Below, in pieces: positions 2,550-30,012 of a stretch of DNA of 64,000 nt (position 1 is its first letter; each line of letters begins with the position of its first letter). The notes beneath the pieces were generated by a model. That model did no database searches and was not told the origin of the DNA. It saw only the letters and a program-made list of their open reading frames with translations. The translations under genes and the position numbers were made by a program. The stretch covers positions 1,297,762 to 1,361,761 of the forward strand of contig OZ244202.1 of assembly GCA_965216815.1 (NCBI GenBank), written 5' to 3'. The stretch is from Acidimicrobiales bacterium. Lineage in GTDB: Bacteria > Actinomycetota > Acidimicrobiia > Acidimicrobiales > SHLQ01.

Positions 2550-3082
2550 GCGTGAGCGACTCCGCCGACGAGGCGACGCCCGAGGACGACGCGCCCGACA
2601 CCGAGGTCGCCGCCGAATCGCCGCGCAGCTACGGCGCTGTTCATGTCCCCGACGACCCGACCGTCCTGTTCCCGACGCTCGACGAGTACGCGGCGACGGT
2701 CGAGGCACTGCGTGACGACGGGTTCCGCATGGTTATCGACCTCACCGCAGTCGACTACCTCACCCATCCGGGTCGTGCGCTTCCGCCAACGGTCGAAGCG
2801 GCAAGGTTCGAGGTCGTCGCGAGCCTCATCGATCACGCCCACCGCCGGCGGGTACGGATCAGACTGCAGGTCGCGGAGGGCGATGTCGTCCCGAGCCTGT
2901 TCGACCTCTTCCCCGGCACCGAGGCGATGGAACGCGAAGTGTTCGACATGTTCGGCATCGCGTTCAGCGACCACCCCGACCTCACCCGCATCCTCATGCC
3001 CGAGGACTGGAACGGTCACCCGCTGCGCAAGGACTACGCCATCGGTGAGATCCCGGTGCAGTTCAAGGCGGTCGGGAAGTGA
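2546..3082 (+). CDS. nuoC: NADH-quinone oxidoreductase subunit C
   Basis: [35 protein letters not shown] overlap with nuoB stop. Confidence 0.9.
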
Positions 3083-4401
3083 CGGCGCCGATGGTCGACG
3101 CCGAGGAGCACGGCGCCGCCGAGACCGCCGATCGCGTTCGCCTGCGCGAGGGATCTGCGGTGTTGCGGATGTCCGAATCGGAGATGGCTGCGGGCGGGTT
3201 CGCCGACGAGGAGGAACACGACGATCACGCGCTCGGCGAGGAGACCATGTTGATGAACATGGGTCCCTCCCATCCGTCCACACACGGTGTGTTGCGCCTC
3301 ATGCTCGAGATGCGCGGCGAGACGATCCTCAGGTCGAAGCCGGTCATCGGCTACCTGCACACCGGCATGGAGAAGACCGGCGAGGAGCTCACCTACCTCC
3401 AGGGAGCCACAAACGTCACCCGCATGGACTACGCGTCGCCGCTGTTCAGCGAGCTTGCGTTCTCGCTGGCGGTCGAACAACTGCTCGAACTCGAGATACC
3501 CGAACGTGCGACGTGGATCCGCATGCTCATGTCCGAGCTTAACCGCATGTCGTCGCACCTGTTGTTCATGGCCACCAACGGCATGGATCTCGGAGCCGTG
3601 TCGATGATGCTCTACGGGTGGCGCGAGCGCGAAGAGGTGCTGCGCTTCTTCGAGATGACCAGCGGCCTGCGGATGAACCACAACTACATTCGGCCCGGCG
3701 GCGTCGCGGCCGATCTGCCCGACGGGTGGCAGGGCGAGGTGCAGCGCCTGTTGGACCTCATCGAGCCCCGCATGGCGGAGTACGACACCCTCATGACTGG
3801 GCAGCCGATATGGCGCGATCGGCTCCAGGGGGTCGGTGTGCTCAACGCCGAGGAGGCGCTGGCACTCTCGACGACCGGGCCGCTGCTACGCTCCACCGGC
3901 TATGCGTGGGATCTTCGTCGCGACATGCCGTACCTCGCGTACGACCAGGTCGAATTCGACGTAATCGTCGGAACCTACGGCGACAGCTTCGACCGTTACG
4001 CGATTCGGCTCAACGAGATCCGCGAGTCGATGCGCATCATCTCCCAGATCCTCGACCGCATGCCGAGCGGCGACTACCGGGTGCAGGACAAGAAGGTCAC
4101 GCCCCCGCCACGTGGCCGCATCGACGAGTCGATGGAGGCCCTCATCCATCATTTCAAGATCTTCACCGAGGGCTTCAAGGTCCCGGTCGGCGAGTCCTAC
4201 GCCGCCGTCGAGTCGCCTCGCGGCGAGCTCGGCTGCTACATCGTGTCCGACGGCACGTCGAAGCCGTATCGCCTGCGCGTCCGTCCCCCGAGCTTCATCA
4301 ACCTCCAGACCCTGCCCCACCTTCTCGCCGACGGAGTGGTCGCCGACGCCGTCGCCGTTATCAGCAGCGTCGACCCGATCATGGGAGAGGTCGACCGATG
4401 A
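3079..4401 (+). CDS. nuoD: NADH-quinone oxidoreductase subunit D
   Basis: NMGPSHPSTHGVLRL, GYLHTGMEK, TRMDY and C-terminal DPIMGEVDR. About 55 aa acidic N-terminal extension. Confidence 0.93.
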   Translation: MTAPMVDAEEHGAAETADRVRLREGSAVLRMSESEMAAGGFADEEEHDDHALGEETMLMNMGPSHPSTHGVLRLMLEMRGETILRSKPVIGYLHTGMEKTGEELTYLQGATNVTRMDYASPLFSELAFSLAVEQLLELEIPERATWIRMLMSELNRMSSHLLFMATNGMDLGAVSMMLYGWREREEVLRFFEMTSGLRMNHNYIRPGGVAADLPDGWQGEVQRLLDLIEPRMAEYDTLMTGQPIWRDRLQGVGVLNAEEALALSTTGPLLRSTGYAWDLRRDMPYLAYDQVEFDVIVGTYGDSFDRYAIRLNEIRESMRIISQILDRMPSGDYRVQDKKVTPPPRGRIDESMEALIHHFKIFTEGFKVPVGESYAAVESPRGELGCYIVSDGTSKPYRLRVRPPSFINLQTLPHLLADGVVADAVAVISSVDPIMGEVDR

Positions 4402-5027: not shown

Positions 5028-5034
5028 ACCGACG

Positions 5035-6441: not shown

Positions 6442-6473
6442 GTAGGACACGGGGACAGACCCCCTGTCCTACT
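6441..6473. repeat. 33-nt near-palindromic element (copy 1), nuoF/nuoG spacer
   Basis: agtaggacacggggacagaccccctgtcctact. 9-bp outer and 4-bp inner stem. It starts on the last base of the nuoF TGA. Confidence 0.65.
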
Positions 6474-6487
6474 CGGACGGCCGCGTC

Positions 6488-10143: not shown

Positions 10144-10145
10144 TC

Positions 10146-11449: not shown

Positions 11450-11748
11450 TCTCCCAGAACTGGCATTTGGTGCTCGGTGCGCTGCTGTTCACCATTGGCA
11501 TGGTCGGGCTTCTCGTGCGACGCAACCCGCTGGTCATGTTCATGTGTGTGGAACTGATGCTGAACGCGGTCAACATCACGTTCGTCGCGTTCGGCAACGA
11601 GCTCGGCGACATCGGTGGTCAGACCGCGGTGTTCTTCGTCCTGGTCGTCGCGGCTGCCGAGGTAGTTGTCGGCCTGGCCATCGTCGTCGCCATCATGCGC
11701 CGTCGACCCGATGCGACCGCCGACGACGTCTCGGTGCTGAGGGGATGA
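11446..11748 (+). CDS. nuoK: NADH-quinone oxidoreductase subunit K
   Basis: GTG start overlapping the nuoJ stop. LMCVELMLNAVN and AAAEVVVGLAIV. Only the last 100 codons of track ORF 10555-11748 are used. Confidence 0.9.
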   Translation: MISQNWHLVLGALLFTIGMVGLLVRRNPLVMFMCVELMLNAVNITFVAFGNELGDIGGQTAVFFVLVVAAAEVVVGLAIVVAIMRRRPDATADDVSVLRG

Positions 11749-11752
11749 GCTG

Positions 11753-13750: not shown

Positions 13751-15360
13751 TCGCGTTCGCCTCCACGGTTCTCGCCAGCTCGGGCACGGTCGACTTCCCA
13801 CTCCTGAGCGCCCTCATCCTCATCCCCGCGGCCGGTGCGATCCTGCTCGCAGTGTTGCCCAGGTCGCGACCGGAGGTCTTCAGGCCCGTCGCGCTTTCCG
13901 TGAGCGGCGTCGCTGGGGCGGTATCGATCTGGTTGCTCGCCGCGTTCGACAAAGGCACCACCGAGTTCCAGTTCCGGTCCGAACAGAGCTGGATCAGCGA
14001 GCTGGGGATCTCATGGCTCCTCGGCGTCGACGGCATCTCGCTCTTCTTGGTCGTGCTAACCGGAGTGCTGTTCCCGATCGCCATCGTCGCCGTCACCCCG
14101 GAGTGCGACCCGAAGCAGTACTACGCGTGGATTCTCATGCTCGAGGCCGGATGCATGGGGGTGTTCCTAGCGCTCGACCTCGTGTTGTTCTTCGTGTTCT
14201 TCGAGATCGTGCTCGTTCCCATGTATTTCCTGATCGGTCGCTGGGGCCACGGGAACCGCGTGTACGCGGCCACGAAGTTCTTCCTCTACACGATGCTCGG
14301 TTCTGCATTGATGCTGGTCGGCATCGTGTTCCTCGCCGTGCTCGACGCGTCGCGAGGAGGTCACGATCTGACCTTCAGCATCGAGGTGCTCGCCAACTCC
14401 CAGGCGCTCGCCGAGTCCTCCACGTGGGCTGCTCGTTTCGTGTTCTTGAGCTTCGCTGTTGCCTTCGCGGTAAAGGTCCCGATCTTCCCCCTTCACACAT
14501 GGCTTCCCGACGCACACACCGAGGCGCCCACGGCTGGTTCGGTCATCCTCGCCGGCGTGATGTTGAAGCTCGGCACCTACGGGTTCATCAGGTTGGGCCT
14601 CTACCTCTTCCCCGACGCCACGGTGTACTTCGCACCGGTCTTCGTGACTCTCGGCGTCGTCGGCATCATCTACGGAGCCGTGGTCGCCACGATGCAGAAG
14701 GACCTCAAACGGCTCGTCGCCTATTCATCCGTCGCCCACCTCGGCTTCATCGTCATGGGCATCTTCGCGCTCAACGTCGAGGGCATCACCGGCGGCATCC
14801 TCCAGATGGTCAACCACGGCATTTCGACCGGAGCGCTGTTCCTCCTCGTCGGCATGATCTATGAGCGGCGCCACACGAGGGAGATCAGCGAGCTCGGCGG
14901 CCTCCAGTCGGCGGCGCCGATACTGGCCGGCGTCTTCACCCTCGTGATGCTCAGTTCGATCGGCCTGCCAGGCCTCAACGGGTTCGTCGGCGAGTACCTG
15001 ACACTGCTCGGTGCGTTCATGGCGCATCGTTGGTGGGCGGTTGTCGCGACCGCAGGTGTCATCCTCGCCGCGCTGTATCTCCTGTGGGCCTACCAGCGGG
15101 TGTTCCACGGACCCGCAGAGGGCCACAACGCCGAGATGCCCGACCTGCGGTTCAGCGAGGGTCTTGTCATGTTGCCGCTCATCGCCCTCATCGTGTTCAT
15201 GGGCATCTATCCCAAACCGGTGCTCGAACGAATGGAGCCGTCGGTCGAAGAGCTGATCGACCACATCGAAGCGGAGGTCGAGGACTTCACCGCTCCGACC
15301 AACGAGGTGCTCGTGGCACCTGAGCCGGCCGACGAAGCCGAAGGTGAGGGGCACGGATGA
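13747..15360 (+). CDS. nuoM: NADH-quinone oxidoreductase subunit M
   Basis: GTGA overlap with nuoL. FAVKVPIFPLHTWLPDAHTEAPTAGSVILAGV.LKLG.YG. N-terminal part of track ORF 13378-15360 discarded. Confidence 0.92.
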   Translation: MIAFASTVLASSGTVDFPLLSALILIPAAGAILLAVLPRSRPEVFRPVALSVSGVAGAVSIWLLAAFDKGTTEFQFRSEQSWISELGISWLLGVDGISLFLVVLTGVLFPIAIVAVTPECDPKQYYAWILMLEAGCMGVFLALDLVLFFVFFEIVLVPMYFLIGRWGHGNRVYAATKFFLYTMLGSALMLVGIVFLAVLDASRGGHDLTFSIEVLANSQALAESSTWAARFVFLSFAVAFAVKVPIFPLHTWLPDAHTEAPTAGSVILAGVMLKLGTYGFIRLGLYLFPDATVYFAPVFVTLGVVGIIYGAVVATMQKDLKRLVAYSSVAHLGFIVMGIFALNVEGITGGILQMVNHGISTGALFLLVGMIYERRHTREISELGGLQSAAPILAGVFTLVMLSSIGLPGLNGFVGEYLTLLGAFMAHRWWAVVATAGVILAALYLLWAYQRVFHGPAEGHNAEMPDLRFSEGLVMLPLIALIVFMGIYPKPVLERMEPSVEELIDHIEAEVEDFTAPTNEVLVAPEPADEAEGEGHG

Positions 15361-16898
15361 TTTTCGCGCAGGTCCCCCCGACACCGGAACCGATCGACAT
15401 CGGCGTTGTCGAAGACTTCGCGACGCCCGACGTCGACGGTTGGCTGATGCTCCCGCTGTTGGTCCTGGTCGGCGGGGCGATCGTGCTGTTGATGATCGTC
15501 TCGCTGGCAAAGAGGCTGCGTGAGGGCCGCTTTGTCGCGTATGCGACGTTCGTGATCGCATCTGCCGCAGCGATCTGTGTGATCCCACTGTGGACCAAGT
15601 TCCAAGAGGATGGAGCGTCCTCCACGCTCGACGGGGCAGTCGGTTTCGACGGGTTCTCCCTGTTCGTCACGGCGGTGATCTGTATCTGTGTGGCGCTCAC
15701 GTCGCTGTTGGCTGCCCAGTACCTGGTCGACGCGGACTTCGGGGGCGCCGAGTTCTATGTGCTGATGCTGCTCTCGGCCTCGGGCGGGGTCGTGATGGCA
15801 TCGGCCAACGACCTGATCGTCTTGTTCCTCGGCCTCGAGGTGCTCTCGATAGCGGTCTATGTTCTCGCCGCACTTCAGCGTCGTCGAACGCAATCGGCCG
15901 AGGCCGGGCTCAAGTACTTCGTACTCGGCGCGTTTTCCTCGGCCTTTCTTCTCTACGGCATCGCCATGATCTACGGCTCAACCGGTTCGACGAACCTGTC
16001 GACCATCCGCGACTTCCTGGCGACCAACCTCGTCACCGACGACGCGATTCTGCTGGCGGGTTTCGGTCTGATGCTCGTCGGCCTCGGCTTCAAGGTGGCG
16101 GCCGTGCCGTTCCACGCCTGGACCCCGGACGTCTACCAGGGAGCTCCGAGCCCGGTGGTGGCGTTCATGGCATCGGCGGTGAAAGCCGCAGGGTTCGCTG
16201 CGCTCATCCGCGTGTTCATCGTCACGTTCGACTCCTTCGTGGCCGACTGGGGCCCGGCGGTGTACGCGCTGGCGGTGCTTTCTCTGCTCGGTGGCGCGAT
16301 CGGTGCCGTGGTGCAGACCGATGTGAAGCGGATGCTCGCCTACTCGTCGATCAGCCACGCGGGGTTCATACTCGTCGGCGTACAGGTCGCCACCGACGAG
16401 GGAGTGAGGGCGTCGTTGTTCTACATCGCCGCGTACGCGGTGATGATCGTCGGGACGTTCGGTGTGGTGAGCCTGATGGGAGGCCCGGCCGACTCGGCCC
16501 ACATGCTCGACGACTACAAGGGGTTGGGTCGTTCCCGACCCATGCTCGCCGGTGCTCTGACCATCTTGTTGTTGTCACAGGCGGGCGTTCCGTTCACGAT
16601 CGGGTTCTTCGCGAAGTTCGAGATCATCACAGCCGCGGTCGACGGAGGCTCTCAGTGGCTCGGCGTGATGGCCATGGTGTCGGCGGTCATCGCCGCATAC
16701 CTCTACCTGCGCATCGTCGTGGCGATGTTCCTGTCGGACGCCGAGGAAGGCTCCGAGGCGGATGCCCCGGCGGGCGTCGCCGACGCTGCTGGGGCCGCCA
16801 TCCTCATCGCTGTCGCGGTTGTGTTGTTCTTCGGCATCGTCCCCGGCCCCCTCGACGAGGTCGCCCGCGACGCCATCCCCGTGCTGGTCACCAGGTAG
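15357..16898 (+). CDS. nuoN: NADH-quinone oxidoreductase subunit N
   Basis: ATGA overlap with nuoM. GFKVAAVPFHAWTPDVYQGAPSPV.AFM. Confidence 0.9.
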   Translation: MIFAQVPPTPEPIDIGVVEDFATPDVDGWLMLPLLVLVGGAIVLLMIVSLAKRLREGRFVAYATFVIASAAAICVIPLWTKFQEDGASSTLDGAVGFDGFSLFVTAVICICVALTSLLAAQYLVDADFGGAEFYVLMLLSASGGVVMASANDLIVLFLGLEVLSIAVYVLAALQRRRTQSAEAGLKYFVLGAFSSAFLLYGIAMIYGSTGSTNLSTIRDFLATNLVTDDAILLAGFGLMLVGLGFKVAAVPFHAWTPDVYQGAPSPVVAFMASAVKAAGFAALIRVFIVTFDSFVADWGPAVYALAVLSLLGGAIGAVVQTDVKRMLAYSSISHAGFILVGVQVATDEGVRASLFYIAAYAVMIVGTFGVVSLMGGPADSAHMLDDYKGLGRSRPMLAGALTILLLSQAGVPFTIGFFAKFEIITAAVDGGSQWLGVMAMVSAVIAAYLYLRIVVAMFLSDAEEGSEADAPAGVADAAGAAILIAVAVVLFFGIVPGPLDEVARDAIPVLVTR

Positions 16899-18459: not shown

Positions 18460-18879
18460 TTGCCCCTGCGCCGTATTGGCGACCCCTATGCCCCATCGTT
18501 AGGCTCTCACGCCGTGTCGGACTTCCTCCGCAGCTACCTCACAGTCTTCATCTTCGCCGGATTCGCCGTCGTTCTCGTCGGCGTCATCTTGTCGTTGGGG
18601 CGGCTCATCCGACCCGATCGGGCTACCGCGCAGAAGTACATCACCTACGAGAGCGGCGTCGACCCCACCGGCGACATGTGGTCTCAGTCGAACATTCGCT
18701 ACTACGTCTTTGCGCTGCTCTTCGTCATGTTCGACGTCGAAGCCGTGTTCATCTTCCCATGGGCCACCCGCCTCGAGGCCTACGGCCTCTTCGGGCTGAT
18801 CGAGATGGGCATCTTCATCGTCATTCTGCTGCTCGGGCTCATCTATGCGTGGCGCAAGGGGATGCTGCGATGGGTCTAG
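18460..18879 (+). CDS. nuoA: complex-I-like subunit A (second copy)
   Basis: YESG.DP.G......IRYY.FALLFV.FDVEAVF.FPWA. A likelier start is GTG 18514. Confidence 0.85.
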
Positions 18880-19373
18880 TCGAGAACGGCAAGCTGCCGA
18901 AACCGCTCACCAGCCTGCTCAACATCTCGCGCAAGTACTCGCTGTGGGTCTATCAGTGGGGGCTCGCCTGCTGCGCGATCGAGATGGGTGCCGCTTTCGT
19001 CGCACCCCGCTACGACGTGATGCGTCTCGGTGTGATCCCGCTGCCCGCGAGTCCTCGCCAAGCCGACCTGGTGGTCATCTCGGGCACCGTCACCGACAAG
19101 ATGGCGCCTGCGGTGCGTCGCCTCTACGAGCAGATGCCCGACCCGAAGTACGTCATCTCCATGGGTTCGTGTGCCAACTGCGGCGGCCCCTACTGGGACA
19201 GCTACTCGGTCACCAAGGGCGTTGACCAGGTCATTCCCGTCGACGTCTACGTGCCGGGGTGCCCGCCTCGACCCGAGGCTCTCCTCGAAGGCATCGTGAT
19301 GCTCCAGGAGAAGATCCTCAACGAGGATCCTGCCGAGCGATGGAAGGGAGAGCCCCTTGTCGTCGACGGCTGA
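18870..19373 (+). CDS. nuoB: complex-I-like subunit B (second copy)
   Basis: Internal ATG of track ORF 18405-19373. [23 protein letters not shown] and VPGCPPRPE. Confidence 0.9.
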
Positions 19374-20040
19374 AGCCACCGAATCAGACGAAGCCTCAGA
19401 AGACGTCGTCGAGACCGACGAGGCTCGCGAGGCTCTCGTCGAGCGCATCGGCGCCGAGCTGGGCGACGCCTTGCTCGATAGTCACATAGTCCCCGGAAAG
19501 GACGCCTGGATACGCGTCACCCGCGACAGCTGGGTCGACACAGGCATGTTCCTACGCGACGGCATCGGTTGTCGCTACTTCAACTTCCTCTCGGTGATCG
19601 ACTGGCTGCCGTCGCCGTACGGCCGCGAGATGGAGGCCGAGGTCGACCTCGATCCGGACGCTGAAAATGAACCTGAGCCGATCGAGCAAGGGTTTGCCGG
19701 CGGCGATACCCGCTTCCAGATCTTCGCCAGGGTGCACAACGTGGTCGATCACCTCGGCATCACGATCAAGACCGACCTCGACGACGACAACCCCGCGATC
19801 GACACCTGGATCCCGGTGTATGCCGGGGCGAACTGGCACGAACGCGAGGCCTGGGAGATGTACGGCGTCGATTTCGTGGGCCACCCGAACCTGGTCCACC
19901 TCTACCTGCCGACGGGGTTCGAAGGACACCCGCTGCGCAAGGACTTCCCGCTGCTGGCACGGCGTATGAAGCCGTGGCCGGGCATCGTCGATGTCGAGCA
20001 GATGCCGGGCGAGGATGACGACGAGGAGGCGGCATCGTGA
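19357..20040 (+). CDS. nuoC: complex-I-like subunit C (second copy)
   Basis: [39 protein letters not shown] start with GGAAGGGAG upstream. Confidence 0.85.
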
Positions 20041-21206
20041 GCGTCACCGAGTCCGAGCAACTCTCCTACATCGCGGCCCAGGCCGCCGATGCCCGACTGA
20101 ACGTGGAGATCGAGACCGAGGGCATGACCCTCAACATCGGCCCCCAGCATCCGGCAACACACGGCACGCTGCGCATCGTCGCCAAACTCGATGGCGAACA
20201 GGTGCTGGCCGCCGAACCGATCGCCGGGTACATGCACCGTGGCTACGAGAAGCTGACCGAGGTACGCACGTACCCGCAGGTGACCACGCTCATCAACCGC
20301 ATCGACTGGTTGGGCAGTTTCGCAAACGAGGTCCCGTTCATTCTCGCCGCAGAACAGCTCATGGAGGTCGAGGCGCCACCACGAGCTCAGTGGATCCGGA
20401 CCGTCCTGTTCGAGCTGTCCCGCATCTCGAACCTCACCTTGTTCCTCGGCGACATGGGCATCCAACTCGGTGCGATGACCCCGGTGTTCTACGCATTCCG
20501 AGACCGCGAGCACGTGGTCAACCAGATCGAGGCAGTTACCGGCGGCAGGTTCCATCCGAACTTCGACCGGATCGGTGGGCTCAAGGACGATCTCCCGGCC
20601 GGCTGGATCGACGGTACTCGGAGCGCGATGGATCGCATCGAGGACTTCTGCGACCAGATGGAGACGCTCCTGCTGGGCAACGAGATCTTCGAGAGCCGGA
20701 CACGCGGTATCGGTGTCATCCCGGCCGACGTGGGACTCGCCTACGGCCTCTCCGGAGCCAACATTCGTGCCAGTGGCGTCGACTGGGATCTGCGCCGAGA
20801 CGGCAGCGAGGGCCTGGTCTACAACGAGCTCGACTGGAAGGTCTGGACCCATCCCGACGGCGACTCCTTCGCCCGGTTCTGGGTGCGGCTCCAGGAGATC
20901 CGCGAGGGCGCCAAGATCGTCAGGCAGCTCCTCGACGGCATCCCGTCCGGACCGGTCATGGCCAAGGTGCCGCGCATCATCAAAGTGCCGGCAGGTGAAG
21001 CATTCGTCGAGACCGACAACCCGCTCGGCGCGATGGGCTACTACGTCGTGTCCAAAGGCGACCTCAACCCGTTCCGTGTGAAGATCCGCTCGGCATCGTT
21101 CAACAACATCTCGATCTGTCCGTGGGTGCTCAGGGGCGTCTACGTGCCCGACATCATCACGATCCTCGCCAGCCTGTACTTCATCTTGGGGGACATCGAC
21201 CGGTGA
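20037..21206 (+). CDS. nuoD: complex-I-like subunit D (second copy)
   Basis: NIGPQHPATHGTLRI, GYMHRGYEKL and C-terminal FILGDIDR. GTGA overlap with nuoC2. Confidence 0.92.
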   Translation: MSVTESEQLSYIAAQAADARLNVEIETEGMTLNIGPQHPATHGTLRIVAKLDGEQVLAAEPIAGYMHRGYEKLTEVRTYPQVTTLINRIDWLGSFANEVPFILAAEQLMEVEAPPRAQWIRTVLFELSRISNLTLFLGDMGIQLGAMTPVFYAFRDREHVVNQIEAVTGGRFHPNFDRIGGLKDDLPAGWIDGTRSAMDRIEDFCDQMETLLLGNEIFESRTRGIGVIPADVGLAYGLSGANIRASGVDWDLRRDGSEGLVYNELDWKVWTHPDGDSFARFWVRLQEIREGAKIVRQLLDGIPSGPVMAKVPRIIKVPAGEAFVETDNPLGAMGYYVVSKGDLNPFRVKIRSASFNNISICPWVLRGVYVPDIITILASLYFILGDIDR

Positions 21207-22231
21207 GCGTTCTCGCAGAGCTGTCTTACTGGCAGCAGACCTCCATCCGGGTCGTCGCCGGGCTCGCCGCGGTGCTCATCCCCGCGGGCACGCTCGTCTA
21301 CCTGTTCCTGTTCAAGATGATGAGCTTCATGCAGAGCCGACTCGGCCCCATGGAAGCTGGCCCATTCGGCTCGATGCAGCTCTTCGCCGAGGTCGGCAAG
21401 TGGCTCCAGAAGGAAGACATCTTCCCATCGCGCGCCGATCGCTGGGTGTTCGCCGGCGCGCCTTTCGTCGTGTTGATGAGCACGTTCCTTCTCGTGCTCG
21501 TCCTGCCGTTCGGTCCCGACGCGTGGTTCGTCAACCTTCCGACCGGCATCTACTTTGCGCTCGCCGTCGGATCGGTTTCGGTCATCGGCGTGCTGATGGC
21601 GGGCTGGGCGTCGGCCAACAAGTACTCGCTGCTCGGAGGCTTGCGCGCCGCGGGCCAGCTGATCGCATACGAGCTGCCCATGGTGCTCGCCGTTGTCGGC
21701 GTCGTCATCCAGGCAGGCACGCTCAACATGCAAGGCATCGTCCTCGCTCAGGCCGACGGCGAGATCTTCGGATGGGGTGCGATCGGAAACCCCTTCATCC
21801 TCACGCAGTTCATCGGTTTCGCAATATTCCTCATAGCCGTACAGGCCGAATTGACCCAAACGCCCTTCGACATGCCGATCGCCGAGTCAGAGCTCGTCAG
21901 CGGCTACTTGACCGAGTACTCGGGCATGCGGTTCCTGTTGTTCTTCATCGGCGAGTATGCGACCGCCGGTGTGTTCTCGGCGATCGTGGCGGTGTTGTTC
22001 CTCGGCGGCTGGTACATCCCGGGCATCGACATCGACGACAACATCTTCAACGTGATCGGACCGATCGTGATGATGGTCAAGATCGTGCTCGTCAGCTTCG
22101 TCATCTTCTGGTTCCGTTTCACGATGCCGCGCTTCCGTGAGGACCAACTCCAGAAGCTCGCCTGGAAGGTCCTGATCCCGTTGTCGCTCGCGAACATCGC
22201 AGCGACCGCCGTGTTGAAGGTGGCGTTCTAG
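21203..22231 (+). CDS. nuoH: complex-I-like subunit H (second copy)
   Basis: GTGA overlap directly with the nuoD2 stop. AEL.QTPFDMPIAESELVSGY.TEYSGMRF. Confidence 0.9.
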   Translation: MSVLAELSYWQQTSIRVVAGLAAVLIPAGTLVYLFLFKMMSFMQSRLGPMEAGPFGSMQLFAEVGKWLQKEDIFPSRADRWVFAGAPFVVLMSTFLLVLVLPFGPDAWFVNLPTGIYFALAVGSVSVIGVLMAGWASANKYSLLGGLRAAGQLIAYELPMVLAVVGVVIQAGTLNMQGIVLAQADGEIFGWGAIGNPFILTQFIGFAIFLIAVQAELTQTPFDMPIAESELVSGYLTEYSGMRFLLFFIGEYATAGVFSAIVAVLFLGGWYIPGIDIDDNIFNVIGPIVMMVKIVLVSFVIFWFRFTMPRFREDQLQKLAWKVLIPLSLANIAATAVLKVAF

Positions 22232-22768
22232 ATGCCGAAGATCCCCGGAGTCATCAAGGGTCTGGGCGTGACGCTCAAGACGTTCACCGAGACGGTCTTT
22301 CCCGACGGCTTGCGCAAGCCGATCCCGCAACCGTCCAAGGGCGCGGTGACAGTTCAGTACCCGCGCGAGAAGGAAGCGCCGCCCGATCGCGCACGCGGTG
22401 TCATCGCCCTTCACGAAGAGAACTGCACGGCGTGCATGCTGTGCGCGCGCGAATGCCCCGATTGGTGCATCTACATCGAGGGTCACAAGACCAAGGCCCC
22501 GCCGCGGCGCGCGGGTGGCAAGCCCCGTCAGGTCAACGCTCTCGATCGGTTCGACATCGACTACGCCCTGTGCATGTACTGCGGCATCTGCGTCGAGGTC
22601 TGCCCGTTCGAGGCGCTGTTCTGGAGCCCGGAGTACGAGTTCTCCGAGGCGAAGATCGCCGACCTGCTCCACGACAAGGATCGCCTCGGCGAGTGGATGC
22701 ACACCGTGCCCGAGTTCGAACCCTATGAGGCGGGCTCGGAGGCCAAGGTGAAGAAGGTGCCGCGATGA
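22232..22768 (+). CDS. nuoI: complex-I-like subunit I (second copy)
   Basis: [12 protein letters not shown] and [18 protein letters not shown] junction. Confidence 0.9.
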
Positions 22769-23310
22769 CTCTCGCAGCCTTCCTCGCTCAGTCCGAAGGC
22801 GGTGACCTCGTCGTCGCGCAGAACATCGCCTTCGGCATCATCGCCGCAACCATGCTGTTCTGCGCCTGGAGGGTGGTGACGACCAGCAATGTCGTTCACG
22901 CCGCCCTCTACCTCGTGATAGTCCTCGCCGGGGTCGCGGCCAACTTCATACTGCTCGGCGCCGAATTCGTCGGCGTCACCCAGGTCCTCGTCTACATCGG
23001 CGCTGTAGTCGTGCTGTTCCTGTTCGGCATCATGTTGACACGCGCGAAGCTGGGCGACGACGAGTCCGTCGACCACGAAAACCGACTCATGGCGGCGCTC
23101 ACCGGCCTGTTGTTGTTCGTCGTCATGGGCTACGCACTCATCGACACCTACGACGACACCCGCGTAGACCTCGAGTCGCCCTCGACGACCGAACAGGTCA
23201 GCGATTCGATATTCGCCGACTACCTGATTCCTTTCGAGGCCGTGTCGGTGTTGCTGCTCGCTGCGCTGATCGGTGCCATCGTGATCGCAAGGAGAGAAGA
23301 TGGTTCTTAA
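22765..23310 (+). CDS. nuoJ: complex-I-like subunit J (second copy)
   Basis: Position and NuoJ-like helices ([19 protein letters not shown]). ATGA overlap. Confidence 0.85.
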
Positions 23311-23599
23311 CCAATTCCTCCTGCTGGCAGCCGCTCTGTTCTGCCTCGGCGTCTACGGCGTGCTCGCCCGCCGCAACGGCGTGATGGTGCTGATGTCGAT
23401 CGAGCTGATCCTCAACGCGGTCAACATCAATCTCGTCGCTTTCGCTGCGTTCACCAATTCCATCGCCGGCGAGGTGTTCGCCCTCTTTGTGATCGCCATC
23501 GCAGCAGCCGAGGTTGGCGTCGGACTGGCGATAGTCCTGTTGATCTACCGCAACCGCAAGAGCATCGACCTCACCGAGGCCGATCTCCTGAAGGGCTGA
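23300..23599 (+). CDS. nuoK: complex-I-like subunit K (second copy)
   Basis: [12 protein letters not shown] and [12 protein letters not shown]. Confidence 0.9.
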
Positions 23600-23601
23600 G
23601 C

Positions 23602-25899
23602 GTGACGATGATGAACGCCCTTCTTCTCGCTGCCGAGGCCGGTTCTTCGGTTACGACCGCCGGTGGCTTCTTCCTGCGCAACGCCTGGATCATCCCGGTC
23701 CTGCCGTTCGCTTCGTTCGTTCTGATCCTCTTCTTTGGCAAGCGCATGCCCAAAGGTGGCTCTGAAATCGGCGTCGCCGCAGTCGGGTTGGCGTTCGTGC
23801 TCGCGTTGTTGGTCGGAGTTCAGTGGATCGATCACCGGGACAACTACGAGGGGACAGCCCACGCCGCCGAGGCCGACCATGGCGAGGGTGAAGAAGCCGC
23901 CGCCGAGGCCGACCACGGCGAGGGTGAAGAAGCCGCCGCCGAAGGCGGCGAGCATGGAGCCGAAGAGGGCGGCCACGAGGCGGCGCATCCGAGTGTCGCC
24001 GTCGGCAACAACGTCGACTGGCTCCAGAGCGGCGGCGAGGTCTTCTCGGTCGGGTTCCTCGTCGACGGGCTCGCAGCGATGATGCTCTTCGTCGTCACGC
24101 TGATCTCGTTGCTCGTGCACGTCTACTCGACCGACTACGTGTCGGGCGATCGGCGGTACACGCACTTCTTCGCGTTCCTCTCCTTGTTCACCGCCGCCAT
24201 GCTGTTTCTGGTCATCGCCGAGAACACGCTGCAACTCATCGTCGCCTGGGAGCTAGTCGGTGTGTGCTCGTTCGCCCTCATCGGCCACTGGTGGGAGGAA
24301 AAGCCCAACAGTGACGCAGCTCTCAAAGCCTTTCTCACCAACCGCGTCGGCGATATCGGCCTGTTGGTCGGTGTCAGCGTGCTGTTCTTCGCCGCTGGCG
24401 GCACCTTCAACATCGTCGAGATCAACACGCTCGCGAACGAGGGTCTCATTTCGCACACGGCGCTGCTGGTCGCGTCGTTGTGCCTGCTCGCCGCCGTCAT
24501 GTCGAAGTCGGGTCAGTTCGTGCTGCACACCTGGTTGCCCGACGCCATGGCCGGTCCGACCCCGGTGTCGGCGCTAATACACGCAGCGACGATGGTCGTC
24601 GCCGGCGTCTACATGGTCGCCCGTCTCTACGGCGTGTTCTGGGAAGGGTTCTCGATCGGAGGATCGAGCATCAACCCGTTGTCCTTGGTCGGAGCGGTCA
24701 CGCTGTTCTTCGGTGGTCTCCTCGCGTTCGTGCAGCGCGACATCAAGAAAGTCTTGGCGTACTCCACCGTTTCCCAGCTCGGCTACATGGTCATGGCGCT
24801 CGGAGTCGGCGCATGGACCGCCGCGGTGTTCCACCTGTTCACCCACGCCTTCTTCAAGGCGGGCCTGTTCCTCGGTTCGGGCTCGGTATCCCACGCGGTC
24901 CACAGCTTCGACATGAAGTCCGACATGGGCGGTCTGCGCAAGTACATGCCCAAGACCTTCGCCACCTTCATGATCTGTTCTGTCGCCCTCATGGGCCTGC
25001 CGCCGCTGGCCGGTTTCTGGTCCAAAGACGAGATCCTCGCCGGCACCGGTGGATGGGGACTCTTCGGTGGCACCGGCGGCAACGGTTCGTACACGCTCAT
25101 GCTGGTCATGGGCATGGCGGGCGCAGCGCTCACCGCCGCGTACATGACCCGCGCCATCTACCTCACGTTCTTCGGCGAGTTCCGCGGTCATGGTGAGCCT
25201 CACGAGTCCGGTCCTCGCATCACCGTGCCGCTCATGATCCTCAGCTTCTTCGCCATCACAGCGGGCTGGCTCAACCTGCCGAAGGGATTCCAGCTCGTGC
25301 CCGAGAGCTGGACCGAGAGGTTCGGCCATTTCGTCGAACCGGTCGCTGCGTATTTCCCGTCCGAGGAGATCGGATTTGGCCACGCTACGCCTAGCTGGAC
25401 GCTGGCGATCGTGTCGACGCTGATCGCGCTCGGTGGTCTCGCGGTGGCCTACGTGTACTACTTCGTCATGGTCGACCGACGCTCGAAGGCGGTCGACGAG
25501 TCGCTCACCGAGCTGCCAAACGGTCCGACCTCGGTTCCCGGACCCGCCGCGGCCGGCTACACGGTCCTGGCGAACAAGTACTACCTCGATCACCTCTATA
25601 CCGACATCATCGCCGGAGGCACCAAGGGACCGGTCGCCGACGGTGTCAACTGGGTCAACAAGCACGTGCTCGACGGTGTGGTCGACGGGGCGGCAACCTC
25701 AGCGGTCAAGGCCGGCAACTTCGTTTACAACACCGTCGATCAGGAGATCGTCGACGGGGTCGTAAACGCCTCGGGTTCCGCATCCAACCTGGGCGGCGAT
25801 CAGCTCCGCAAAGTGCAGAACGGCCGGGTGCAGCGCTATGCGGCCATCTTGTTCCTGGGCGCTGCGGCGCTCGCCGGTGTGTTCATCGTTCTTTTGTAG
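23602..25899 (+). CDS. nuoL: complex-I-like subunit L (second copy) with His/Glu-rich insert
   Basis: WELVGVCSF.LIGHWW and KSGQF.LHTWLPDAMAGPTPVSALIHAATMV. 765 aa against 665 aa for copy 1. Start could also be ATG 23608 or 23611. Confidence 0.9.
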   Translation: MTMMNALLLAAEAGSSVTTAGGFFLRNAWIIPVLPFASFVLILFFGKRMPKGGSEIGVAAVGLAFVLALLVGVQWIDHRDNYEGTAHAAEADHGEGEEAAAEADHGEGEEAAAEGGEHGAEEGGHEAAHPSVAVGNNVDWLQSGGEVFSVGFLVDGLAAMMLFVVTLISLLVHVYSTDYVSGDRRYTHFFAFLSLFTAAMLFLVIAENTLQLIVAWELVGVCSFALIGHWWEEKPNSDAALKAFLTNRVGDIGLLVGVSVLFFAAGGTFNIVEINTLANEGLISHTALLVASLCLLAAVMSKSGQFVLHTWLPDAMAGPTPVSALIHAATMVVAGVYMVARLYGVFWEGFSIGGSSINPLSLVGAVTLFFGGLLAFVQRDIKKVLAYSTVSQLGYMVMALGVGAWTAAVFHLFTHAFFKAGLFLGSGSVSHAVHSFDMKSDMGGLRKYMPKTFATFMICSVALMGLPPLAGFWSKDEILAGTGGWGLFGGTGGNGSYTLMLVMGMAGAALTAAYMTRAIYLTFFGEFRGHGEPHESGPRITVPLMILSFFAITAGWLNLPKGFQLVPESWTERFGHFVEPVAAYFPSEEIGFGHATPSWTLAIVSTLIALGGLAVAYVYYFVMVDRRSKAVDESLTELPNGPTSVPGPAAAGYTVLANKYYLDHLYTDIIAGGTKGPVADGVNWVNKHVLDGVVDGAATSAVKAGNFVYNTVDQEIVDGVVNASGSASNLGGDQLRKVQNGRVQRYAAILFLGAAALAGVFIVLL

Positions 25900-25914
25900 T
25901 CACGAGGATTCGAC

Positions 25915-27540
25915 ATGGAAACGTTTGACGATTGGTCACTGACACTGGTGACATTCCTGCCGTTGGTCGCGGCGCTGGTCATGATGGCCATCCCCAAGAC
26001 ATCCGAGGAGACGCACAAGCTCCTGGCGCTGGGTACGTCGGTGGCGGTCGCCGTGCTCGGGGTCATCATCCTCGTCCGCTTCGACTTCGACCTCTCCGGT
26101 GAGCTCCAGTTCGTCGCCGACGAGACCTGGATCGAGATCATTAACAGCCGCTACATCGTCGGCCTCGACGGGATCTCGCTGCCGCTGGTGTTGCTGACGA
26201 TGCTCGTGGTGCCGTTGTGCATCGTCTACAGCTGGAATCACTTCCCCGAGCCGCACAATCCGAAGGCGTTCCTGATCCTCATCCTCATTCTCGAGACGGG
26301 GATGATCGGCACGTTCGTCGCCCAGGACCTGATTCTGTTCTTCGTGTTCTTCGAGGTTGTGCTGTTGCCGATGTTCTTCATGATCGCGGTCTGGGGTGGT
26401 CCCGAGCGCAAGTACGCGTCGCTCAAGTTCTTCCTGTTCACGTTGTTCGGCTCGGCGCTGATGATCCTGTCGTTTCTCGCCCTGTTCTTCCTCGCCGAGG
26501 ACGCGGCCGGCGATGCGCTGCGTACGTTCGACATGCGCGAGCTGACCGAGTGGGGCGGAGCGGGTCTGGCGCGCACGACCGGGCTGTTGATCTTCGGAGG
26601 CATGTTCATGGGGTTCGGCATCAAGGTGCCGATGTTCCCGTTCCACACCTGGTTGCCCGACGCTCACACCCAAGCACCCACGGTGGGCTCGGTGATCCTG
26701 GCCGCTGTGCTGCTGAAGCTCGGCACCTACGGGTTCGTTCGGATCGCCATCCCGATATTGCCCGAACCGGCGGTCGAGTGGGCGCCGTGGATCGGCGCGC
26801 TGGCCGTCGTAGGCATCATCTATGGCGCGCTCGGATGCCTCGCACAAACCGACATGAAACGACTCATCGCGTTCTCGTCGGTGGCCCACATGGGCTTCGT
26901 CATGCTCGGCATCGCCACGCTCACCGACTTCGGCATCAATGCTGCGATCTTCGGCATGGTCGCTCACGGTCTCATCACCGGCATGCTGTTCTTCCTGGCG
27001 GGGTCGGTGAAGGAGCGGTACCACACGCTCGAGATCAAGCGGCTCGGCGGTCTGCTCGTGCAGGCGCCGCGGATGGGCTGGATCCTCGGGTTCTGTGCGA
27101 TGGCTTCGCTCGGCCTGCCCGGTCTCGCCGGGTTCTGGGGTGAGTTCCCCGCAATCCTGGCTTCGTACAACCCGGCCAATGGCGTGCCGGTAGAGACCTT
27201 CCGCACCTACATGGTCATAGCTGCGCTCGGCACGGTACTCGCCGCCGGATACCTTCTGTGGCTTCTACAGCGGACCGCGTTCGGGACGCCGTCGGACGAG
27301 TTCGCTGAGGATCCCGCCATCACGGACACGACGCCGACCGAGTGGGTCGCTTGGGCGCCTTTGCTCGCACTCATCGTCGTACTCGGCATCTACCCGAACC
27401 TGCTGTTCAAGACCACCGACGACGCGGTCGTGAATTCCCTCGACGAGTGCCTGCAGGTCGACGAGTCTGACGCAGCTGACCTCGGTTGCGGCGAGGTCTA
27501 CGATTTGGGCACCGTCGAGGTCGCGGCGGAAGGCGGCTGA
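25915..27540 (+). CDS. nuoM: complex-I-like subunit M (second copy)
   Basis: FGIKVPMFPFHTWLPDAHTQAPTVGSVILAAVLLKLGTYG. Confidence 0.9.
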   Translation: METFDDWSLTLVTFLPLVAALVMMAIPKTSEETHKLLALGTSVAVAVLGVIILVRFDFDLSGELQFVADETWIEIINSRYIVGLDGISLPLVLLTMLVVPLCIVYSWNHFPEPHNPKAFLILILILETGMIGTFVAQDLILFFVFFEVVLLPMFFMIAVWGGPERKYASLKFFLFTLFGSALMILSFLALFFLAEDAAGDALRTFDMRELTEWGGAGLARTTGLLIFGGMFMGFGIKVPMFPFHTWLPDAHTQAPTVGSVILAAVLLKLGTYGFVRIAIPILPEPAVEWAPWIGALAVVGIIYGALGCLAQTDMKRLIAFSSVAHMGFVMLGIATLTDFGINAAIFGMVAHGLITGMLFFLAGSVKERYHTLEIKRLGGLLVQAPRMGWILGFCAMASLGLPGLAGFWGEFPAILASYNPANGVPVETFRTYMVIAALGTVLAAGYLLWLLQRTAFGTPSDEFAEDPAITDTTPTEWVAWAPLLALIVVLGIYPNLLFKTTDDAVVNSLDECLQVDESDAADLGCGEVYDLGTVEVAAEGG

Positions 27541-27541
27541 G

Positions 27542-29044
27542 GTGATCGCCCAGGTGCTGGCCCAGGCGTTCGAGTCGCCGAACCTCGACTATCACGCGCT
27601 CGCACCCGAGATCGTGTTGGTCAGCTTTGCCGCGGTGTTGATTCTGCTCGACGTCGTCCTGCTCGAGAAGGCCAGGCCGTTCATTTCCGCGCTGGCGGGA
27701 ATCGGTCTGTTGGCGACAATGGTGCCGATCCTAACTCTCGCCATCGACGGCACCGATCGCGTGCTGTTCGGCGGCGCCTACGTGGTCGACGATTTCGCGC
27801 TCGTCATGAAGGCGCTCTTCGTGCTGAGCGGTTACGTCGTCGTGTTGTTGTCGACCAACTACATCGCCGAGGGCGACTACTGGGAGAACGAGTTCTACGG
27901 CCTGCTACTCGCGTCGATCGGCGGCATGGTCGTCATGGCTTCGTCGCGCGACCTGATCACGATCTTCGTTGCTCTCGAGTTGTTGTCCATCCCCGCCTAC
28001 ATCATGGCGACGTGGCGCAAACGCGACCTGCGCAGCAACGAGGCCGGCCTGAAGTACTACCTGATGGGCGTCTTCGCATCGTCGATCATGCTCTACGGAA
28101 TGTCGCTGCTCTACGGCGCGAGCGGTTCGACACTTCTGACAGGGATCAATGAGGCGGTGAGCAATGCCGCCGACAGTCCGACCACGGTCACGTTGGCGGT
28201 GATCTTCGTCATCGTCGGGTTCGCCTTCAAGGTCTCCGCGGTTCCATTCCACTACTGGGCGCCCGACACCTACGAGGGAGCTCCGACCCCGGTCACGGCA
28301 TATCTCGCTGTCGCGTCGAAAGCTGCGGGATTCGTCGCTCTGCTCCAGCTCGTGTTCGTCGGCTTCTACGGTCGCGACGACGTCTATGAGCCGGTCATCT
28401 GGATCCTTGCAGCGGCATCGATGACGATCGGCAACCTGTTGGCGCTGCGCCAGGACAACATCGTGCGCATGATGGCCTACTCGGGCGTCGCCCAGGCCGG
28501 CTTCATGATCGCCCCTCTGGCTGTCGCTTCTGAGACCGGCGACAGCGCGGTGACGACCACGGTCACCTACCTCCTGATCTATGCCGCGATGAACCTCGGC
28601 GCGTTCGCCGTGATCATCGCCCTCGCCCGCAAGACCGGCTCGGCGCAGCTCGACTCATACGACGGCGCCTTCCACTACGCCCCGGCGCTGACCGTCGCCA
28701 TGACGATCTTTCTCTTCAGCCTCGCGGGCATCCCACCGCTCGGCGGGTGGTTCGCGAAATTCGCTGTCATGAGCACCCTCATCGACGCGAACAACGCGTC
28801 CGGTGTTGTTCTCGCGATCGTTGTCGCCGTCAACTCGGTCATCGCCCTCTACTACTACGGCAGCGTCGCCCGCCGCATGTGGGTCGAGGACGCGCCCGAC
28901 GGCGACCTTTCGCCCGTGCAGGTCCCCGTTTCGCTCATCGCCGCCCTCGGCATCACCGCTGCCCTGACTCTGTTGTTCGGCGTGTTCCCACAGGCGGTCA
29001 CCGAGATCTCCGAGGTCGGGTTGCTCTCGGCGATGGGTGGGTGA
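27542..29044 (+). CDS. nuoN: complex-I-like subunit N (second copy)
   Basis: FAFKVSAVPFHYWAPDTYEGAPTPVTAY. Confidence 0.9.
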   Translation: MIAQVLAQAFESPNLDYHALAPEIVLVSFAAVLILLDVVLLEKARPFISALAGIGLLATMVPILTLAIDGTDRVLFGGAYVVDDFALVMKALFVLSGYVVVLLSTNYIAEGDYWENEFYGLLLASIGGMVVMASSRDLITIFVALELLSIPAYIMATWRKRDLRSNEAGLKYYLMGVFASSIMLYGMSLLYGASGSTLLTGINEAVSNAADSPTTVTLAVIFVIVGFAFKVSAVPFHYWAPDTYEGAPTPVTAYLAVASKAAGFVALLQLVFVGFYGRDDVYEPVIWILAAASMTIGNLLALRQDNIVRMMAYSGVAQAGFMIAPLAVASETGDSAVTTTVTYLLIYAAMNLGAFAVIIALARKTGSAQLDSYDGAFHYAPALTVAMTIFLFSLAGIPPLGGWFAKFAVMSTLIDANNASGVVLAIVVAVNSVIALYYYGSVARRMWVEDAPDGDLSPVQVPVSLIAALGITAALTLLFGVFPQAVTEISEVGLLSAMGG

Positions 29045-30012
29045 GCGGTCTCTCCTCCCGCCTGATCGAGCGCGTTGAGCAAGAGGGGCCGATTCGCTTC
29101 TCGGACTACATGACCACGGCGCTCTACGACCCGGACGTTGGGTTCTACTCGGTCGATGGTCGGGCCGGTCGACGGGGCGACTTCATCACCAGTCCCGAGG
29201 TGGGACCGCTCTTCGGCGCGCTGATCGGCCGCTGGATCGATGGTCGCTGGGAGGCGGTCGGCAGACCCGATCGCTTCACTGTGGCTGAAGTCGGAGCCGG
29301 GCCCGGCACGCTTGCCCGATCGGTGCTGGAATCGGTCCCGTCGTGTTCGGATGCTCTCAGCTACGTCGCTGTCGAGACGTCGGCCACCCAGCGGAGGCTG
29401 CACCCCGAATCGGTCGTGTCTGTGACAGAACTCCCGGCTGGCGCGATCGACGTCGTCCTCGCGAACGAACTGCTCGACAACCTGCCGTTCGACATCACCG
29501 ACGGATCACAGGACATGCTGGTCGGAGTCGACGGCGACCGCTTCGTGGAAGTCTGGCCGGATGGCGTTCCCGATCGTCGGTATCCACGCCAGGATGCCGC
29601 GCGCCGATTCGTCGAGGTCGCGATGCGTCGGGTCGGCGCGGGAGCCGTGCTGGTCATCGACTACATGCGCTCAGGCCACGCGGCGTTCGACGATGCCGAT
29701 TGGCTCCGGACGTACCGGGGTCACGAACGGGGCGGCGACCCGCTCGTAGACCCTGGGGAGTGGGACGTCACCGCCGACGTGGCGCTCGAACCGCTCATCG
29801 CCGGGTTGCGAACGCCTCGGATATCGACGCAGGCCGAGTTTCTCGCGGACCTGGGCATCGACGAGCTGGTTGCGGAGGGCAGAGCGGCGTGGGAGGCCGG
29901 CGCTGCACGCGGTGATCTAGCTGCGCTGAAGGGTCGTAGCCGCGTGCGCGAGGCCGAGGCGCTGACCGACCCAGCCGGCCTCGGCGGCTTCACCGTGTTG
30001 GAGTGGGGCTGA
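29041..30012 (+). CDS. MidA/NDUFAF7-family (DUF185) SAM-dependent methyltransferase
   Basis: GTGA overlap with the nuoN2 stop. DFITSPEVGPLFGALIGRW, EVGAGPGTLA, VETSATQRRL, ANELLDNLPF and VIDYM match the MidA/NDUFAF7 pattern recalled from memory. Confidence 0.75.
   Translation: MSGLSSRLIERVEQEGPIRFSDYMTTALYDPDVGFYSVDGRAGRRGDFITSPEVGPLFGALIGRWIDGRWEAVGRPDRFTVAEVGAGPGTLARSVLESVPSCSDALSYVAVETSATQRRLHPESVVSVTELPAGAIDVVLANELLDNLPFDITDGSQDMLVGVDGDRFVEVWPDGVPDRRYPRQDAARRFVEVAMRRVGAGAVLVIDYMRSGHAAFDDADWLRTYRGHERGGDPLVDPGEWDVTADVALEPLIAGLRTPRISTQAEFLADLGIDELVAEGRAAWEAGAARGDLAALKGRSRVREAEALTDPAGLGGFTVLEWG

Follow-up and report, generated by a model that had tools for sequence, protein, structure and literature searches.

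A tryptophan at the quinone-ligand position of NuoD2 and a rebuilt quinone pocket in a widespread actinobacterial paralogue of complex I

We analyzed a stretch of 64,000 nucleotides from an Acidimicrobiales bacterium (assembly GCA_965216815.1, contig OZ244202.1, positions 1,297,762 to 1,361,761 of the forward strand), further called 'the window'; positions are counted from its first letter. The window carries two operons for subunits of respiratory complex I. The first one, nuo1, is a canonical 14-gene nuoA-N operon (∼1502–16898) with nuoE, nuoF and nuoG included. The second one, nuo2, has 11 genes; its nuoD2 gene, the main subject of this analysis, runs directly into nuoH2, the GTG start of nuoH2 at 21203 overlapping the nuoD2 stop. 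NuoD2 is a member of PF00346 (253.8 bits at a curated cut-off of 24; E = 2e-75), with a GPQHPATHG motif in its N-terminal part and a SLYFILGDIDR motif in its C-terminal part; it has no Cys pairs, i.e. it lacks the four Ni-Fe cysteines of the [NiFe]-hydrogenase large subunit. An AlphaFold2 model built from a 27-row alignment (predicted local distance difference test score 81.6, predicted template modelling score 0.83) matched 49-kDa subunits with template modelling (TM) scores of 0.83–0.86, chain 4hea_4 among them (42% identity over 385 columns); the model points to a fold unchanged from that of the 49-kDa subunits, which is of the [NiFe]-hydrogenase large-subunit type.

The first-pass annotation of this DNA had placed a Trp of NuoD2 opposite the Tyr that serves as a quinone ligand in NuoD1 and in Thermus Nqo4, and we confirmed this. 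In a phmmer search against all Protein Data Bank chains the best match was Thermus Nqo4 (2fug_4/4hea), residues 23–318 of NuoD2 being aligned with residues 19–313 (E = 1.9e-95). The block around the site has no gaps: LINRIDWLGSF of NuoD2 stands opposite YTPRMDYLHSF of Nqo4, so that NRIDW faces PRMDY. The number of Nqo4 Tyr87 was counted from the coordinates printed in the phmmer alignment; Thermus numbering is used for all pocket positions below. The DNA around the site reads aac cgc atc gac tgg ttg, with TGG being codon 91 of nuoD2 (20307–20309). Cyanobacterial and chloroplast NdhH, aligned in the same register by the same search, keep Tyr (SRWDY and TRWDY), and so does NuoD1 of the window (TRMDY, the Tyr codon TAC being at 3430–3432). 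MAFFT alignments placed Trp91 in the same column. A shift of alignment that would bring another Tyr to the ligand position was ruled out by the gapless block and by the high identity around R-x-D-(Y/W) to the Thermus, cyanobacterial and plastid proteins. In the canonical enzyme Tyr87 hydrogen-bonds the quinone carbonyl beside cluster N2, while Asp139 pairs with His38, located on the β1–β2 loop. The partner His had been annotated as retained; indeed, the His of NuoD2 equivalent to Nqo4 His38 (His42) is present in 84 of 84 members of the clade described below.

Among 121 homologues with at least 82% identity, coming from independent assemblies (mostly metagenome-assembled genomes of Acidimicrobiales), 113 matched NRIDW in a pattern search; the other eight were not matched by the pattern and were not read. 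The LYFILGDIDR pattern was matched by 120 of the same 121 sequences (the non-matching sequence was not read individually). In 84 clade members taken from named genomes and aligned with L-INS-i, the column was Trp without exception. Such conservation across independent assemblies rules out a sequencing error or a pseudogene at this TGG codon; the Trp is a natural one, as had been supposed. Within the order, identity to the query was 77–82% for NuoD2 orthologues versus 66–81% for NuoD1 orthologues, thus the Trp paralogue is under no weaker constraint than the canonical one.

Homologues were collected from 1.84 billion cluster representatives (50% identity), and a tree of 106 full-length NuoD rows was built in a quick IQ-TREE run. 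All actinobacterial Trp sequences made a single branch (24 of 24 with Trp; Shimodaira–Hasegawa-like approximate likelihood ratio support of 100), with the window NuoD2 inside. The other 82 rows had Tyr (74), Phe (3), Ile (1), His (1) or Trp (3). Two of these three outside Trp rows were NuoC/D proteins of Methanofastidiosia and Methanonatronarchaeales archaea (P0155 and P0170); the third one had no origin assigned. The two archaeal proteins, which are Fpo/Nuo-like, read DRMDW at the same column and otherwise keep Asp139 and Asp401; their Trp is independent of the actinobacterial clade. Subclades of the Trp branch track taxonomy: subclade A comprises Acidimicrobiales, the window included; B comprises other Acidimicrobiia, with Ca. 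Actinomarinales among them; C is a family we designate f68; D and E are Actinomycetes (Streptomyces, Kribbella, Actinomadura, Nonomuraea, Janibacter and others). Members of the clade are recognized by (N/S)RxDW plus Phe in place of Pro402, and the window NuoD2 has both (NRIDW, SLYFILG).

We also surveyed 401 sampled Actinomycetota genomes for Trp-type NuoD, defined as a match with E ≤ 1e-105; this threshold was calibrated on five Tyr-type genomes (41–43% identity, DRxDY) and on Trp-type loci (at least 44% identity). A Trp-type match was found in 170 genomes (∼42%), most of which also kept a Tyr-type NuoD; hence, the Trp is not the rare oddity that it had seemed to be at first sight. We conclude that Trp is ancestral to, and fixed in, a single widespread paralogue of complex I in Actinobacteria, inherited vertically, which we call Nuo2. 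In one family (f25) a single genome had a Trp-type NuoD2 (G284:C498:341-1504) among 31 otherwise Tyr-only genomes. The protein is 81% identical to the window NuoD2; the contig of its gene, a short one in an assembly of 640, is probably Acidimicrobiales contamination.

The annotation had also proposed a remodelled acceptor pocket. This proposal was borne out by clade-wide changes at Asp139, Thr135, Arg350, Asp401 and Pro402, as well as at NuoH2 Glu35/Arg36. Counts were made in the L-INS-i alignment of 84 sequences. His34, His38, Arg42, Arg84 and Asp86 are invariant (84 of 84), and Pro402 is replaced by Phe in all 84. The Asp401 position is occupied by Tyr in subclade A, by Asp in B and by Phe in C, D and E; at the Arg350 position there is Leu in A, C, D and E, and Lys in B. 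The Asp139 position has Glu in 71 sequences and Gln in 13, the latter all from Acidimicrobiales. Exactly these 13 sequences have Asp at the Thr135 position, where the other 71 have Ser or Ala: a perfect covariation. With Glu139 present elsewhere, this means that a carboxylate near His38 is conserved in all Trp-clade sequences; in the Acidimicrobiales NuoD2 it looks like it was relocated by one helical turn. On the side of NuoH, the ERK loop of NuoH1 and of solved NuoH/NdhA structures is changed to LFK in subclade A and to E(M/L)K in B. The equivalent of Nqo8 Arg36 was lost in all 35 NuoH2 operons read, and Glu35 was lost in subclade A. Taken together, these substitutions leave the chamber less charged and richer in aromatic side chains. 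NuoD1, serving as an internal control from the same genome, keeps all canonical pocket residues. The pocket has changed in a coordinated way, clade-wide and as a set.

Positions of the genes and of individual residues are given in the table.

Table. Features of the window related to nuo2 and its quinone site (TM, transmembrane helix; aa, amino acids)
Feature	Position	Strand	Remarks
nuoD1	3079..4401	+	Tyr (TAC 3430-3432), Asp and Asp-Pro all kept
nuo2 operon, nuoA2-B2-C2-D2-H2-I2-J2-K2-L2-M2-N2	18460..29044	+	Without nuoE, nuoF, nuoG; assigned by Pfam
nuoB2	18870..19373	+	Cluster N2 cysteines kept (CC...C...C; tandem Cys and two further, incl. GCPP)
nuoD2	20037..21206	+	389 aa; 49-kDa/NuoD-family subunit of the complex lacking NuoE, NuoF and NuoG
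NuoD2 His42 (CAC)	20160..20162	+	Nqo4 His38, retained quinone ligand; invariant, 84/84
NuoD2 Arg46 (HGTLR)	20172..20174	+	Taken to be the equivalent of the NDUFS2 arginine methylated by NDUFAF7; retained, invariant
NuoD2 Trp91 (TGG)	20307..20309	+	Position of quinone-ligand Tyr (Thermus Nqo4 Tyr87)
NuoD2 Asp139 (GAC)	20451..20453	+	Nqo4 Thr135 position; new carboxylate, one helical turn ahead of the lost Asp
NuoD2 Gln143 (CAA)	20463..20465	+	Nqo4 Asp139 position (His38 partner); Glu in the other 71
NuoD2 Leu330	21024..21026	+	Nqo4 Arg350 position in the quinone chamber
NuoD2 Tyr381-Phe382	21177..21182	+	Nqo4 Asp401-Pro402; SLDPVMG changed to SLYFILG
nuoH2	21203..22231	+	ERK loop changed to LFK; Nqo8 Glu35 and Arg36 lost
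nuoI2	22232..22768	+	Both CxxCxxCxxxCP motifs (N6a/N6b ligands) kept
nuoL2, nuoM2, nuoN2	23602..29044	+	TM5 Glu, TM7 Lys, TM8 His and TM12 Lys/Glu/Lys pattern kept
MidA/NDUFAF7-family methyltransferase gene (PF02636)	29041..30012	+	Overlaps the nuoN2 stop

The rest of the machinery encoded by nuo2 is intact. Besides the ligands of clusters N2, N6a and N6b, the pump residues of the antiporter-like subunits are kept: in a six-way alignment E217/E147/E146, K302/K237/K230 and K475/E410/K406 of NuoL2, NuoM2 and NuoN2 align with the residues of NuoL1, NuoM1 and NuoN1. The gene order of nuo2 is repeated in Acidimicrobiia loci, in family f68 and in genome G360.

In three genomes of family f68 (G252, G336 and G380, 91–96% complete) and in genome G360 (96%), the NuoD and the NuoH of a Trp-type 11-gene operon (loci L094–L097) are the only ones. 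A NuoF domain (PF01512) had no match anywhere in the G252, G336, G380 or G360 genomes. Therefore, the enzyme appears able to do without the N-module, and obligatory sharing of NuoEFG with Nuo1 is ruled out as a general rule; it could still take place in Streptomyces. The window genome itself carries nuoEFG in nuo1, and sharing is possible there too. At the Actinomycetes loci (L035–L083) nuoD2 is an orphan, with no other nuo gene within 10 kb. The Streptomyces nuo2 operon was described as having no nuoC and nuoD, as well as no nuoE, nuoF and nuoG (PMC8388888), and nuo2 was shown to be transcribed as an operon in Streptomyces (PMC3765725).

A gene for a MidA-like methyltransferase lies 3′ of nuoN2 in the window and in many Acidimicrobiia loci. 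It also adjoins the orphan nuoD2, or is situated within a few kb of it, in ∼37 of the 49 Actinomycetes loci. In mitochondria NDUFAF7 methylates an arginine of NDUFS2 near cluster N2. In these gene neighborhoods the methyltransferase gene follows the Trp-type subunit rather than the operon, even where nuoD2 stands apart from the rest of the complex. Earlier, a link of Trp both to EFG-less operons (those without nuoE, nuoF and nuoG) and to midA had been suggested. The midA part of this suggestion stood; the other part fell, since NdhH of another EFG-less complex keeps Tyr, which rules out Trp as a general mark of such complexes: it tracks one actinobacterial clade and a few archaeal cases. Examples of MidA-like genes are L060:8901-9815, upstream of nuoD2, and L083:11144-12055, downstream of it on the opposite strand. 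Frames of 735 and 1049 amino acids in Actinomycetes resembled MidA–NuoD fusions; this was ruled out, as Pfam detected only the NuoD domain and the frames were high-GC (guanine–cytosine) ones running through the upstream gene.

A passage of Lopez-Perez et al. (2020; PMC7771536) proposes, by analogy with Fpo, coenzyme F420 as the donor of the Actinomarinales paralogue. The window genome makes F420: it encodes a CofH of the FbiC type, which passes the curated cut-off, as well as a homologue of CofE. Outside the window, adjoining argS, the same genome encodes a protein of 412 amino acids (G000:C1:4008276-4009511; L103:3777-5015) with a two-[4Fe-4S] ferredoxin domain at the N-terminus and FrhB_FdhB_N and FrhB_FdhB_C after it; among solved structures, its closest relative is FrhB, an F420-binding subunit (3zfs_C, 1.4e-40). 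We take this combination of two [4Fe-4S] clusters with FrhB to be the architecture of FpoF. In Methanosarcina mazei fpoF is located outside the fpo operon as well. Among the 401 genomes, relatives of the FpoF-like protein were present in 127 of 170 with Trp-type NuoD (43 without) versus 16 of 231 others (215 without). Most of the latter 16 are incomplete genomes from families that are otherwise Trp-type, and no family without Trp-type Nuo2 had the protein (e.g. 0/31, 0/28, 0/13 and 0/7). As a lead, the FpoF-like protein is the best candidate for the donor in the window genome; F420H2 could be a facultative input in many lineages. A second FrhB-like gene of the genome was set aside as an input module; it adjoins a polysaccharide pyruvyl transferase gene.

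Replacement of Tyr87 by Trp was noticed before. Degli Esposti (2015; PMC4758237, section 8) reported it, along with an altered position 401, in NuoD of Streptomyces that produce piericidin. In that paper both substitutions, described as 'unique or very rare' among Actinomycetes, are explained by natural resistance to piericidin. We saw Trp87 and Phe401 in 49 of 49 Actinomycetes loci, i.e. as the signature of orphan NuoD2; most likely, the NuoD2 paralogue of those strains had been compared with NuoD1 of others. With 170 of 401 genomes carrying the Trp type, the statement on rarity is contradicted. The same paper summarizes mutagenesis (Kashani-Poor 2001; Tocilescu 2010; Sinha 2015): according to this summary, mutants of Tyr87, the Trp one included, lose most of the activity with decylubiquinone, keep the activity with Q1 and Q2, and become strongly resistant to rotenone and quinazolines. 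In our literature search we found no biochemical study of any Nuo2 or NuoD2.

We think it somewhat probable that Nuo2 is an intact proton-pumping quinone reductase, independent of NuoEFG, that reduces menaquinone in an aromatic pocket with no Tyr proton donor. Electrons would enter at NuoI2; the donor is likely to be a low-potential carrier, an FpoF-like F420H2 oxidizer where present and otherwise a ferredoxin-type one, as in NDH-1. They would then pass the two NuoI2 clusters, reach cluster N2 in NuoB2 and reduce menaquinone held between His42 and Trp91. The indole NH of Trp may hydrogen-bond the carbonyl or the ring may stack on the naphthoquinone; it could not give a proton, therefore the second proton would come by another route. 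Of the canonical site, the half made by His and the carboxylate is kept, with charges of the chamber (Asp401, Arg350, NuoH Arg36) replaced by aromatic or aliphatic side chains. Turnover would drive the unchanged NuoL2, NuoM2 and NuoN2 pumps; the conserved His–carboxylate pair along with the intact antiporter-like subunits argues for redox-linked proton pumping being retained. By analogy with Tyr-to-Trp mutants, classical quinone-site inhibitors should have little effect on a pocket of this kind. One could go further and describe Nuo2 as a self-contained proton-pumping F420H2- or ferredoxin:menaquinone oxidoreductase that docks the FpoF-like module where it is present and reduces quinone without Tyr, by means of His, a relocatable carboxylate and a cage of Trp and Phe, being for this reason intrinsically insensitive to classical quinone-site inhibitors. 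We offer this fuller version only tentatively, as its being right in all parts is rather doubtful.

Several points weigh against the menaquinone reductase. Reduction of quinone by Nuo2 is itself assumed. Trp cannot donate the proton of Tyr, and Acidimicrobiales have no Asp139 in place either, so the chemistry could be a different one. The same organisms reduce menaquinone with the Tyr-type Nuo1, which means that Trp is not simply an adaptation to menaquinone. The 43 Trp-type genomes in which the FpoF-like gene was not found include all 10 Streptomyces-like ones and the six group-B Acidimicrobiia sampled; in the coordinates of the 401-genome survey this gene was never seen beside nuo2; and its association with the Trp type is inflated by shared ancestry, relatives not being independent. 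Finally, the Streptomyces nuo2 operon without nuoC and nuoD (PMC8388888) would be a better fit to sharing of subunits with Nuo1 than to a self-contained enzyme.

This last point leads to a rival explanation: NuoD2, or Nuo2, could be a swap-in quinone module, an inhibitor-insensitive isoform borrowing NuoEFG (in Streptomyces also NuoC) from Nuo1, with Tyr-to-Trp being a resistance change, as Degli Esposti proposed for piericidin producers. The residues reported in PMC4758237 are precisely those of orphan NuoD2, most Trp-type genomes keep a Tyr-type NuoD alongside, and some sharing of subunits is needed where nuoD2 is an orphan and nuo2 has no C, D, E, F and G genes. The trait is, however, found beyond producers and beyond soil: it is fixed in marine Actinomarinales and across Acidimicrobiia, and so is older than any producer lineage; the four genomes with the Trp-type operon only and with no NuoF point to NuoEFG being unneeded; and the rarity stated for the change is contradicted by the genome counts. 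We consider it improbable, slightly more so than a change of substrate or direction, which is itself unlikely. By the latter, the pocket, now more hydrophobic, would have ceased to reduce menaquinone at the deep site; Nuo2 would pass electrons to another acceptor, membrane-soluble or protein-bound, or would run in reverse, using proton-motive force and menaquinol to produce reduced ferredoxin or F420H2. In the window's subclade both canonical proton donors are altered (Tyr87Trp and Asp139Gln) and three charges of the chamber are neutralized; the co-occurring FpoF-like F420 module could work either way. Independent cases of Trp are found in NuoC/D of Methanofastidiosia and Methanonatronarchaeales, methyl-reducing methanogens for whose Fpo-like complexes an electron transfer to partners other than free quinone has been proposed. 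Nevertheless, His38, the carboxylate nearby, Arg84, Asp86, NuoA, NuoH, NuoJ, NuoK and the entire pump show the same conservation as in quinone reducers, and no gene for an alternative acceptor is linked to the operon; also, Trp mutants, as summarized in PMC4758237, still reduce short-chain quinones and stay coupled. As to an artefact or a decaying paralogue with a dead active site, nothing but the loss of a residue usually called invariant speaks for it; given Trp in every independent assembly examined, a NuoD2 conserved no less than NuoD1, open frames with cofactor and pump motifs kept, and genomes where it belongs to the sole complex I, its probability is negligible.

Current models of coupling in complex I start from the triad of Tyr87, His38 and Asp139. 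The Trp family, large and evidently functional, is a natural experiment on which parts of this triad are needed for coupled quinone reduction, and on the role of Trp in a position where single mutants are crippled. If Nuo2 is indeed a menaquinone reductase, quinone is reduced in it without the Tyr proton donor that current mechanisms treat as essential. Nuo2 is present in ∼40% of sampled actinobacterial genomes, including those of Streptomyces and of the abundant marine Actinomarinales, and is the sole complex I in some lineages; thus the donor and acceptor that it uses, and its sensitivity to inhibitors, bear on the energy metabolism of Actinobacteria. Its co-occurrence with Nuo2 makes the FpoF-like protein a concrete candidate, open to testing, for the electron-input module that is missing. 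The data also correct the published view of the change as a rare mutation by which piericidin producers resist their own product. The substitution itself is already in the literature for Streptomyces NuoD (PMC4758237); as far as we could find, its clade-wide fixation, the covarying set of pocket residues with a relocated carboxylate, the Nuo2-only genomes without NuoF and the co-occurrence with the FpoF-like protein are not.

Comparison with known systems shows how far the pocket departs from each of them. Thermus Nqo4 (4HEA chain 4) is of the same Pfam family and the same fold (TM score 0.83, 42% identity), with His38, Arg42, Arg84 and Asp86 in common; in both organisms the neighbouring subunit is a NuoB that has the ligands of N2, and the gene context is nuoABCD-HIJKLMN. 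NuoD2 differs from Nqo4 by Tyr87Trp, Asp139Gln with Asp135, Arg350Leu, Asp401Tyr and Pro402Phe, whereas the complex differs by a NuoH2 partner without Glu35 and Arg36 and by the absence of NuoEFG from the operon. Engineered Tyr-to-Trp/Phe mutants of the 49-kDa subunit (Yarrowia Tyr144; Escherichia coli NuoCD), as reviewed in PMC4758237, have the same exchange at the same position; it is, however, a single change in an otherwise canonical pocket, while in NuoD2 Trp is fixed by selection along with at least five other pocket changes. Cyanobacterial and chloroplast NDH-1 and archaeal Fpo also have no NuoEFG, but NdhH keeps both Tyr and Asp, and FpoD keeps Tyr87 and has neither His38 nor Asp139 (PMC4758237).

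Closer relatives belong to the same clade. The orphan NuoD2 of Streptomyces is 46–51% identical to the window protein and shares with it Trp87, Phe402, a changed position 401 and a MidA-like gene nearby. It stands apart from a nuo2 operon that has no nuoC and nuoD, and has Glu139, Phe401 and His85; the window nuoD2, in contrast, is part of a complete operon of 11 genes, and its product combines Gln139 with Asp135 and carries Tyr401. For Ca. Actinomarinales, passages of PMC7771536 and of a preprint by Bulzu et al. (10.1101/2021.02.01.429150) describe an 11-gene nuo paralogue with an NDUFAF7 gene behind it and propose F420 as its donor; the passages searched in these two sources do not mention a quinone-site change. 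The order of genes is the same as in the window, the NDUFAF7/MidA gene follows, and the operon adjoins a 14-gene nuo operon. Its NuoD2, of the sister subclade, is 53–58% identical to that of the window and also has Trp87 and Phe402; this subclade differs in that it keeps Asp401 and has Glu139, Lys350 and NuoH Glu35.

The membrane arms of Nuo2 and Nuo1 appear, from their closest solved relatives, to differ in affinity. NuoH2 is closest to cyanobacterial NdhA (1.1e-63), and NuoH1 (8938–10143) to NuoH of Mycobacterium smegmatis (7.5e-98). NuoL2 (23602–25899) has 765 amino acids versus 665 in NuoL1, i.e. it is ∼100 amino acids longer; the extra sequence precedes the Proton_antipo_N domain, which begins at residue 140 in NuoL2 versus residue 70 in NuoL1.

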